Virus record (IMG/VR): IMGVR_UViG_3300006879_000664
Span: 1 to 4,049 of that record
Reading direction: 5' to 3' (one strand)
From: a virus
Taxonomy: Duplodnaviria; Heunggongvirae; Uroviricota; Caudoviricetes
Length of the DNA stretch: 4,049 bases
Shown here: in pieces, positions 549 through 3,286 of the stretch
How the letters are laid out: the number at the start of each line of letters is the position of its first letter
Position numbering within the stretch: the stretch's first letter is position 1
The notes under the pieces: generated by a model
Told to the model about the DNA's origin: nothing
The model's input: the letters and a program-made list of their open reading frames with translations, nothing else
Database searches by the model: none
Program-made: the position numbers and the translations under genes

Positions 549-715
549 CAGGCATTACAGCAGCTCTTCAGCGAGGGGCTGCGATAATGCAGGTGTTAGA
601 GTGTGTGCAAATGATAATTAGTCCCATTTTCACGGGTCCTTCCTGAAATTTGGAACACCGAGGGTCTGGGGACGCGCAAAAACGCGCTATTTATGAAAAT
701 TTTCAGGGAAAAAGC

Positions 716-732
716 AGATCCGTTCTTCTTCT
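716..732 (+). promoter_or_regulatory. R3-like terminase small-subunit binding repeat (AGATCCGTTCTTCTTCT)
   Basis: Seen in sequence: 17-mer sharing the AGATCC(G/T)TTCTT core with the elements at 764-780 (inverted) and 816-832. It includes the CCGTTCTTCTTC block I recall from lambda cosB and a GATC site. Confidence 0.6.
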
Positions 733-763
733 GGCTAACCTGTTGTTTAATATAATTTTCTTG

Positions 764-780
764 AAAAAAAGAAAGGATCT
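764..780 (-). promoter_or_regulatory. R2-like terminase small-subunit binding repeat (inverted copy; reverse complement AGATCCTTTCTTTTTTT)
   Basis: Seen in sequence: the reverse complement of 764-780 matches the 816-832 element at 15 of 17 positions. The inverted orientation relative to R3 and R1 mirrors the lambda cosB arrangement. Contains a GATC site. Confidence 0.6.
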
Positions 781-815
781 GGCAGCGGTGATTTTTCACT
801 GAAAAAAGCGTTTTG

Positions 816-832
816 AGATCCTTTCTTCTTTT
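816..832 (+). promoter_or_regulatory. R1-like terminase small-subunit binding repeat (AGATCCTTTCTTCTTTT)
   Basis: Seen in sequence: direct copy of the AGATCC(G/T)TTCTT core, ending about 18 nt before the Nu1 start codon. Contains a GATC site. Confidence 0.6.
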
Positions 833-849
833 TGTGAGGAATATGTGCC

Positions 850-1398
850 GTGAAGGTTAACAAAAAGAAACTGGCGGAAATTTTTGAGTGCGATGTCAGA
901 ACAATCACTGGCTGGCAAAGTCAGGGGCTGAGAGTTTTGTCGGGGGGAGGCAAAGGTATCGAGGCCATGTTCAATACTGCAGAAGCCATTGAATGGTATG
1001 CGCAGCGGGAAAAAGATATCGAAAACGAAAAGCTCCGCAAAGAACTGGATGATTTGCGTGCGGCTGCAGAATCAGATTTACAACCCGGCACCATTGACTA
1101 TGAACGCTACCGGCTAACCAAAGCACAGGCTGACGCACAGGAGCTGAAAAATGCCCGTGAAGAAGGGCTGGTGCTGGAAACGGAATTGTTTACCTTCATT
1201 CTGCAACGTGTGGCACAGGAGATTTCGGGGATACTTGTACGTGTGCCGCTGACATTACAGCGTAAATATCCGGATATTTCACCGTCACACCTTGATGTGG
1301 TGAAAACTGAAATCGCGAAAGCCTCCAATGTTGCAGCTAAAGCCGGTGAAAACGTGGGCAGGTGGATTGATGATTTCAGACGCACAGAAGGCAGCTAA
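850..1398 (+). CDS. nu1: Terminase small subunit (lambda gpNu1 family), 182 aa, GTG start
   Basis: Seen in sequence: ORF 850-1398 with GTG at 850 and a GAGGA Shine-Dalgarno at 836-840. An in-frame TGA at 835-837 excludes any upstream start, and the ATG at 843 is out of frame. Established knowledge (recalled): the translation is collinear with lambda gpNu1 along its whole length, for example VNKK-LA-IF, the GGGKG motif, [33 protein letters not shown] and a similar length (182 vs about 181 aa). The N-terminus is the winged-HTH DNA-binding domain in lambda. Confidence 0.95.
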
Positions 1399-3286
1399 TG
1401 CAGCCGGTGCGATAGCTACAGGGCTTTTATCTCTCAATATTCCGGTTCCACTGACGACGGTTCAGTGGGCTGATCAACATTATTATCTGCCGAAAGAATC
1501 TTCATATACCCCCGGGCAATGGGAAACCCTGCCGTTTCAGGTTGCCATTATGAACAGCATGGGAAATGACCGGATCCGCACCGTTAATCTGATTAAATCG
1601 GCGCGCGTTGGTTACACCAAAATGCTGTTGGGGGTGGAGGCTTATTTTATTGAGCATAAATCCCGTAACAGTCTGCTTTTTCAGCCAACAGATTCTGCGG
1701 CAGAAGATTTCATGAAATCTCATGTTGAGCCAACGATCAGGGATGTCCCTGCATTGCTGGAGCTGGCTCCATGGTTCGGAAGAAAGCACCGCGATAATAC
1801 ACTCACCCTGAAGCGTTTTTCCTCCGGTGTGGGTTTCTGGTGCCTAGGTGGTGCCGCTGCTAAAAACTACCGTGAAAAATCTGTGGATGTGGTCTGCTAT
1901 GACGAACTCTCCTCGTTTGAACCGGATGTGGAAAAAGAAGGTTCGCCGACGCTGCTTGGCGATAAGCGTATCGAAGGCTCGGTATGGCCTAAATCCATAC
2001 GTGGCTCAACGCCAAAAATTAAAGGCTCCTGCCAGATTGAGAAAGCCGCAAATGAATCAGCGCATTTCATGCGGTTTTATGTCCCTTGCCCTCATTGCGG
2101 GGAGGCCCAGTATCTGAAGTTTGGCGATGATGCGACGCCGTTTGGCCTGAAATGGGAGAAGGGTAAACCGGAAACGGTGTATTACCTGTGTGAACATAAT
2201 GGCTGTGTGATCCGCCAGTCAGAACTTGACCAGAGCGGCGGACGCTGGATTTGTGACAATACCGGGATGTGGACGCACGACGGCCTGGCATTTTACAGCG
2301 CCGGTGATGAGGAGATGCCGCCACCGCGCTCAATCACGTACCACGTGTGGACAGCGTACAGTCCGTTCACCACCTGGGTACAGATTGTTTATGACTGGCT
2401 GGATGCGCTGAAGGATCCGAACGGTGTTAAGACGTTTATTAACACCACGCTCGGGGAGCCCTATGAAGAGGCTGTGGCAGAAAAACTGAGCTTTGAGTTG
2501 TTACTGGAAAAAGTCTGCCACTATGGCGCGCAGGTTCCCCTGCGGGTGGTTTACCTGACCGCAGGGATCGACTCACAGAAAGATCGCTATGAAATTTATG
2601 TCTGGGGCTGGGCTCCCGGCGAAGAAGCCTTTCTCATTGACAAGCAAATTATCATGGGGCGACCGGAAGACGAGGACACCCTTAAACGTGTTGATACGGT
2701 GATCCGGAAAAAATATCGCCATGCTGACGGTACTGAAATTTCCATTTCCCGCGTCTGCTGGGATACCGGTGGTATCGACCAGGACATTGTGTATCAGCGT
2801 TCCAGAAAACACGGCACTTTTTTTGTGCTTCCCATTAAAGGGGCATCGGTGTACGGCAAGCCGGTGATCACCATGCCTAAAAAGCGCAACCAGCGTGGTG
2901 TGTTTTTGTGTGAGGTGGGCTCCGATACCGTCAAGGAAATGCTGTACGCCCGTTTTGCCCTGCCGGTGGTTTCTGCCAGTGAAGCCGCCCCGTATACCTT
3001 CCGTTTTCCGGATAACCCGGACATTTTTTCGGAAGAAGAAGCACGTCAAATCGTGGCGGAAGAACTGGTGGAAAAGGTGGTTAATGGCAGGGTGAAACTG
3101 CTGTGGGATAAAAAAGGGCGACGCAACGAAGCCCTCGACTGCCTGGTATATGCCTATGCTGCCCTGCGTATTTCAGTACAACGATGGCAACTGGACCTTG
3201 AGGCACTGGCCCGGGCACGAAGAGACGAGCAGGATGAGGATGATATGAGTCTGGAAGAGATCGCGGCTGCACTGAGTGGAGGATAA
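1370..3286 (+). CDS. A: Terminase large subunit (lambda gpA family), 638 aa from ATG 1370
   Basis: Seen in sequence: the long ORF ends at TAA 3284-3286. Established knowledge (recalled): it is collinear with lambda gpA, including YYLPKES, WETLPFQ-AIMN, the Walker A-like KSARVGYT (1595-1618), [84 protein letters not shown], the nuclease-region LTAGIDSQ (2555-2578), [12 protein letters not shown] and NEALDC-VYA-AALRIS. Start choice is inference: ATG 1370 is preceded by AGGTGGA (1360-1366) and places YY at residues 38-39 exactly as in lambda gpA, whereas the track's ATG 1328 adds 14 residues and has no obvious RBS. The gene overlaps the Nu1 3' end by 29 nt in a different frame. Confidence 0.95.

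Follow-up and report, generated by a model that had tools for sequence, protein, structure and literature searches.

The DNA between positions 634 and 850 of the window (the entire 4,049-nt stretch of viral sequence analysed here) is very likely a cos site belonging to a lambda-like prophage of E. coli; its cosB is of the Gifsy-1 type and its predicted role is in packaging. The element would mark the predicted genome ends and the packaging-specificity module of an E. coli prophage family, and it points to a putative AGATCC (Gifsy-1-type) packaging specificity beside those of lambda, phage 21 and N15. Knowledge of the cosB class helps to predict cross-packaging among co-resident lambdoid prophages or satellites.

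To place the subsites of the region, window positions 560–920 were aligned, using MAFFT, with the joined ends of lambda, with phage 21 (OL657228, a record in which cosN, R3, I1, R2, R1 and cosQ are annotated), with Gifsy-1 and with the partial prophage SerU-LTIIb. It is apparent that the alignment is collinear along its full length with all four references. The features identified are listed in Table 1, in which bp numbers are counted from bp 1 of cosN, placed at window position 663 by an ungapped count back from the I2/R3 side. The cores of R3, R2 and R1 and the start of Nu1 are found at bp 54, 109, 154 and 188, as compared with 54, 110, 155 and 189–190 in the lambda and phage 21 classes, and the subsite spacing is common to all three classes (lambda, phage 21 and Gifsy-1-type). 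A sequence-only reading of this DNA had proposed the R3/IHF/R2/R1 layout of lambda cosB, situated directly upstream of a Nu1 homologue, and had called for alignment with the lambda and phage 21 cos regions. That layout is borne out by collinearity throughout with lambda and with the annotated phage 21 cos, and the genes for Nu1, gpA, gpW and the portal protein do follow downstream. The same reading had described the cosB as lambda-type. The description holds for the architecture, but the sequence type of the repeats is that of Gifsy-1 and not that of lambda or phage 21.

Table 1. Features of the predicted cos site and the adjoining terminase genes in the window
Feature	Position	Strand	Sequence	Remarks
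cosQ-like heptamer (packaging termination subsite)	634-640	+	GGGTCCT	Exact match to the annotated cosQ of phage 21, with which it aligns
Predicted cosN 12-mer	663-674		GGTCTGGGGACG	Expected 5' cohesive end; position +/- 1-2 nt
I2 block	680-712	+	Core GCTATTTATGAAAATTTTC	bp 18-50; core identical to lambda
R3 repeat	716-732	+	AGATCCGTTCTTCTTCT	Core at bp 54-63; GATC at bp 55-58
R3 core	716-725	+	AGATCCGTTC	bp 54-63
I1-like putative IHF site	736-748	-	AAACAACAGGTTA	Inside the spacer 733-763; 1 mismatch to WATCAANNNNTTR
R2 repeat	764-780	-	AGATCCTTTCTTTTTTT	Inverted; begins at bp 109
R1 repeat	816-832	+	AGATCCTTTCTTCTTTT	Direct; begins at bp 154
nu1/terS, small terminase gene	850-1398	+		GTG start (bp 188); GAGGA at 836-840; PF07471, E = 2.7e-85
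Winged helix-turn-helix DNA-binding domain	First ~55 codons of nu1	+		Recognition helix encoded at 892-927
gpA/terL, large terminase gene	1370-3286	+		ATPase and endonuclease domains; PF05876, E = 1.2e-54; PF20454, E = 1.5e-67

The I2 block is strongly conserved with lambda, phage 21 and Gifsy-1, the mean entropy over bp 13–47 being 0.29–0.36 bits; I2 is essential in lambda (PMC4856287). The putative IHF site has the position and orientation of the I1 element (AAACATTAAGTTA) of lambda and phage 21. Its match to the IHF consensus is not significant by itself (3 such matches in the window versus 3.6 expected). In one divergent relative (L065) a perfect match to the consensus occupies the same position.

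Three copies of AGATCCKTTCTT, each with no more than one mismatch, are present in the window, as compared with 0.02 expected, and none of 200 shuffled sequences contained three. The direct copies start at positions 716 and 816 and the inverted copy occupies 769–780. The three repeats, one of them inverted, which had been recognized earlier from the letters alone were all recovered at the positions given in Table 1. The AT-rich spacer noted at about 733–763 proved to be 71% A+T, and the GATC said to lie in every repeat was seen at 717, 776 and 817, with no other GATC between 484 and 1471. These three sites are parts of one repeated unit and do not, therefore, represent three independent events. 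Over the window as a whole the enrichment in GATC was not significant (22 sites versus 15.4 expected, with 12 of 200 shuffles reaching 22).

The nu1, gpA and gpW genes are all intact in the window; gpW follows gpA and is itself followed by the start of a lambda-family portal gene, the reading frame of which is open. The DNA-binding domain of Nu1 matches the PDB structures 7LXS (the Gifsy-1 sequence), 7LWR (phage 21) and 1J9I/7LW0 (lambda). Residues 1–45 of Nu1 are 73% identical to Gifsy-1 and 64% identical to phage 21, while residues 46–160 are 97% identical to phage 21, and at the nucleotide level gpA is approximately 82% identical to gene 2 of phage 21. In a megablast comparison, matches to phage 21 start only at window position 985, and the cos region, together with nu1 up to about codon 45, resembles SerU-LTIIb (93–96%) and Gifsy-1 (74%). 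This switch from Gifsy-like to 21-like identity points to a recombination joint just past the DNA-binding domain, at about window position 985 (nu1 codon ~45). The location of the joint argues that cosB and the DNA-binding domain constitute one module and move together. The mosaic nu1 mirrors the classical lambda-21 chimeric TerS.

The relationship between the R cores and the TerS recognition helix was examined in a larger set of sequences. Two scans of IMG/VR, with the Nu1 proteins of the window and of Gifsy-1, were combined with a single genome-contig scan and with the reference phages, which gave 164 loci representing 116 distinct cos sequences. An AGATCC core was paired with a VRT(I/V)T(G/A/S/T)WQSQG helix in 59 of these (all of the parsed members of the class), (G/A)TGTCG with PRTIERWQSQG in 44, and (G/A)TTTCC with (I/V)RTIQNWQ(E/D)QG in nine. 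The remaining four of the 116 could not be assigned owing to failures in start-codon parsing, and no mismatched pairing of core and helix was found among the 116 sequences, these four being unparsed. The AGATCC class comprises 62 distinct sequences, and its R cores are nearly invariant while its spacers are divergent. R3 is AGATCCGTTCTTCT in 60 of the 62, the GATC of R2 is retained in 60, and R1 is AGATCCTTTC in 61; the mean entropy is 0.03 bits over bp 54–63, as compared with 0.98 bits over the cosQ–cosN spacer (bp –22 to –1). The covariation of R core and TerS helix, which is without exception, provides strong, albeit indirect, comparative evidence for the repeats as binding sites of TerS. 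Conserved cores set among diverging spacers are likewise the pattern that would be expected of protein sites co-evolving with their reader, and provide strong indirect evidence to the same effect. Three helices strictly matched to three R cores, on a geometry otherwise shared, also make a clean natural data set for the study of DNA reading by winged helix-turn-helix terminases.

The residues concerned are compared in Table 2. In work from the Feiss laboratory, the specificity of lambda versus phage 21 was traced to bp 56 and 59 and, in TerS, to residues 20 and 24 (PMC4669245). From its pattern at these base pairs and residues, the window differs from both phages at known specificity positions. 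In the literature found, packaging specificities have been tested experimentally for lambda, phage 21 and N15. The data in Table 2 suggest that the AGATCC class has a packaging specificity of its own, and, given the distinct R cores and helix residues, the phage should package its own DNA but not DNA of the lambda or 21 type.

Table 2. R3 core and TerS recognition helix in the window and in reference phages
Source	R3 bp 54-59	Recognition helix	TerS residues 20/21/24
lambda	GTTTCC	SIRTIQNWQEQG	Q/N/E
Phage 21	GTGTCG	DPRTIERWQSQG	E/R/S
Gifsy-1	AGATCC	DVRTVTAWQSQG	T/A/S
Window	AGATCC	Type VRT(I/V)T(G/A/S/T)WQSQG	T/G/S

Several individual loci deserve mention in their own right. The genome-contig scan returned mostly lambda-type loci and one further locus of the AGATCC class, from Providencia alcalifaciens (L007, 1–95), which falls outside the 62-member set. 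Its TerS is of the AGATCC class, with the helix DVRTITAWQSQG; its R1 is AGATCC, but its R2 is ACTTCC and has no GATC. The GATC of R2 has also been lost in L040. The R2 of the Providencia locus indicates that the GATC at this site is dispensable in at least some members. In Escherichia phage PhiR5_1 (PV340545; L193, 870–1070), R repeats CATGTCAG and CATGTCGT are combined with an IRTIDRWQTQG helix on the same cos geometry, a pairing which implies that there are more cosB specificity classes than those of lambda, phage 21, N15 and Gifsy-1. Homologues of Nu1 were also found on short contigs assigned to Kitasatospora, Paenibacillus, Bradyrhizobium and Chromatium, among other unrelated taxa (L014–L018, L022 and L025–L027). 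Their identity to the Nu1 of the window, approximately 52%, equals that of lambda Nu1, and the contigs look like lambda DNA contamination of the assemblies. In the phage record collection, the only records sharing the cosB of the window were the prophage-derived Gifsy-1 and one partial prophage. Searching the literature by sequence string, with the R core and the cosN 12-mers, produced irrelevant matches only.

The predicted cosN aligns without gaps to bp 1–12 of lambda, phage 21 and Gifsy-1. It differs from lambda at six of the 12 positions, including bp 3 and 5 in the left half, and keeps the GG at bp 1–2, the centre of the dyad and, on its right, the CG flank. The centre of a partial dyad, GTC...GAC, falls between bp 6 and 7, which is also where it lies in lambda. 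The dinucleotide flanking the 12-mer on the left is AG, the conserved form being CG, and the cosQ–cosN spacer (641–662) measures 22 nt, versus 23 nt in lambda and phage 21. A 22-nt spacer together with an AG or GG left flank is a trait of a subgroup, and those relatives that have a lambda-type cosN have a 23-nt spacer. In view of the AG flank, the 22-nt spacer and the six differences, the exact cut sites are uncertain, and the real nick could be shifted by 1–2 nt from that predicted.

Nineteen different cosN 12-mers were observed among 74 distinct cos sequences (loci L033–L192), a diversity that exceeds what is described in PMC4669245. Throughout the 74, the GG at bp 1–2 is invariant and the dyad centre at bp 6/7 is kept, while bp 3–12 are variable. 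This variation extends to bp 3–5 in the left half (GGTCTG.., GGTACG.. and GGACGG..), and one variant, GGTACGCGTACG, has a perfectly palindromic core. The cosN types were found alongside both AGATCC-type and 21-type cosB. Vahanian et al. 2017, cited in PMC12315714, is said to be a dedicated survey of cosN, and may already cover variation of this kind.

The unusual features of cosN bear on the possibility that the window carries a decayed, non-functional cos remnant of a cryptic prophage, from which packaging would not start in this strain. The atypical 12-mer and the cosQ–cosN spacing, which is 1 nt short, would be in keeping with such decay, as would the insertions of the IS66 family in a related prophage of E. 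coli M8, which raise the possibility of defective copies of this prophage. The window itself, however, retains intact nu1, gpA and gpW genes and an open portal start, and its cos subsites are conserved, the predicted cosN in part. Moreover, the same 12-mer recurs in seven distinct cos sequences and the other variants keep the dyad centre, which argues for selection rather than decay, and a remnant is accordingly considered improbable. Still less credence can be given to the notion that the R2/R1 inverted repeat acts as a hairpin, cruciform or terminator upstream of nu1 and is not a protein site at all, a reading that is very improbable indeed. It is true that R2 and R1 are 94% complementary as an inverted repeat of 17 nt, that a run of T residues follows R1, and that the strand from 700 to 845 folds somewhat better than shuffled sequences (z = –2.19, with seven of 200 shuffles equalling it). 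The excess over shuffles is modest, however, and R2 is AGATCCTTTT in 20 of the 62 class members while R1 is still AGATCCTTTC, i.e. the change is uncompensated. R3 bears the same motif yet lies outside the R2/R1 hairpin, and a model based on structure only leaves both the helix covariation and the conserved lambda geometry unexplained. Terminator and promoter functions were rejected, since positions 540–900 yielded nothing resembling either, and a search of Rfam, which returned no match, likewise spoke against a known RNA family.

A further proposal accepts the cos site as described and adds to it that Dam methylation of the GATCs in the R repeats alters the binding of TerS, so that the initiation of packaging would become dependent on how the DNA is methylated or on its state of replication, as at P1 pac. 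This addition is regarded as unlikely. Slightly more doubtful is its specific form, in which the GATC at bp 55–58 would make TerS binding sensitive to Dam and would enable the phage to tell the methylated cos of the prophage from the under-methylated cos of new concatemers. The R3 GATC does lie within the stretch, bp 55–63, that is contacted by lambda TerS according to NMR data (PMC9026076), and the adenine of its top strand falls at bp 56, one of the positions known to determine specificity; this sharpens the suggestion, made in the sequence-only reading, that methylation might influence the binding of the small terminase. Both N6-methyl groups would, by virtue of that location, come to lie beneath the recognition helix, within the major groove, and an effect of Dam on TerS binding is physically plausible. 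The helix residues specific to the class (T20, G/A/S/T21 and S24) are small, GATC is kept in 60–61 of the 62 class members at each R site, and there is a precedent in P1 pac, where GATC hexamers flank an IHF site and their adenine methylation regulates cleavage (PMC10028697). On the other hand, GATC is the core of the binding site, which accounts fully for its conservation, and that conservation therefore says nothing separate about methylation. The losses from R2 in L040 and in the Providencia locus also weigh against the proposal, and the known hosts are all Dam-positive, which makes a comparative test impossible. The papers of the Feiss laboratory consulted here make no mention of GATC or methylation, and a literature search for a link between Dam and terminase or Gifsy-type packaging found none, P1 pac excepted. 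Were the proposal correct, Dam would add a regulatory layer, for which the support so far is geometry, governing the timing or direction of the start of packaging, and this would be a cos-phage counterpart to the methylation control of P1 pac.

The preferred interpretation, a cos site with three TerS-binding repeats, suggests the following course of events. On the model of lambda and phage 21, IHF would bend the A+T-rich I1 segment that separates R3 from R2, and the winged helix-turn-helix domains of TerS would dock as dimers on the R repeats, R1 being an accessory site. TerS so bound would position gpA over cosN, about 47 bp upstream. Staggered nicks introduced there by gpA would generate a 12-nt 5' cohesive end, for which the cosN 12-mer of Table 1 is the predicted sequence, and cosQ would work at the end of packaging.

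One annotated gene runs across this region. The 'NU1-like protein' of KU052038 (L001, 2975–3193) corresponds to window positions 650–802 on the + strand, and a protein-coding reading across cos was considered and rejected. The window ORF at 650–802 has no Pfam match, and PGAP made no call there in E. coli M8; the KU052038 entry is probably a spurious gene call over cosN–cosB.

The prophage of E. coli M8 (L194; NZ_CP019953, 1361902–1405950) is 96.5% identical, and its cos intergenic region is situated between the lysis cassette and the head genes. Its head genes are of the lambda type and are combined with genes for a P2-type contractile tail and baseplate; the insertions mentioned above are two in number, and the 20 kb upstream of its cos include no annotated DNA methylase. 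In the window, the slot between the lysis genes and cos holds a 99-aa ORF (249–548), which belongs to phrog_1935 and has no Pfam match. Positions 3–598 show 96.5% nucleotide identity to a hypothetical gene region of the Stx2e phage phiP27, and a phage of Actinobacillus shows 95.9% identity over about 5% of the window, inside positions 1–590. In SerU-LTIIb, the same lysis–cos slot is occupied by the LT-IIb enterotoxin genes. Relatives of this prophage bear cargo of this kind just upstream of cos.

Of the known systems, P1 pac resembles the predicted cos site of the window in having a GATC in each terminase-binding repeat, around an IHF site, at the start of packaging. It differs in its unrelated PacA/PacB pacase, its headful packaging and its TGATCA/G hexamers, and dependence on methylation has been demonstrated for P1 but is hypothetical here. 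The terminase encoded in the window is not a pacase of the PacA/PacB type associated with headful packaging but is of the Nu1/gpA type, accompanied by cosQ and a predicted cosN. Lambda is the founding example of the cosQ–cosN–I2–cosB arrangement and has the same geometry as the window, with which it shares the I2 core and, in the R repeat, the 3' half (GTTCTTCTT / TTTC). The R core and helix of lambda are different (Table 2), bp 56 is T:A in lambda but A:T here, and the lambda R sites lack GATC. Phage 21 is identical to the window in the order and spacing of its subsites, but its cosB is only 52% identical, its R core is GTGTCG with the helix PRTIERWQSQG, its cosN is GGGCGGCGACCT, and all of its R sites are without GATC.

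The closest likeness is to Gifsy-1, the cosB of which has already been given as R3-I1-R2-R1 by the Feiss laboratory (PMC9026076), and the I2 and R3 of which have been aligned with those of lambda, phage 21 and N15 (PMC4856287). Gifsy-1 and the window have in common the R core (AGATCCGTTCTTCTT in R3 and AGATCCTTTC in R2 and R1), the R3-I1-R2-R1 layout, the spacing and the type of recognition helix. The two are nonetheless distinct, with 70% nucleotide identity in cosB and 73% amino-acid identity in the DNA-binding domain, and the cosN 12-mer is GGGCGGCAGCGT in Gifsy-1 versus GGTCTGGGGACG in the window. The remainder of Nu1 and gpA in the window are of the phage 21 type and not of the Gifsy-1 type, and the host is E. 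coli, whereas Gifsy-1 is a phage of Salmonella. As both the cos architecture and the Gifsy-1 variant of it are already in the literature, the window represents a new E. coli member of this group.
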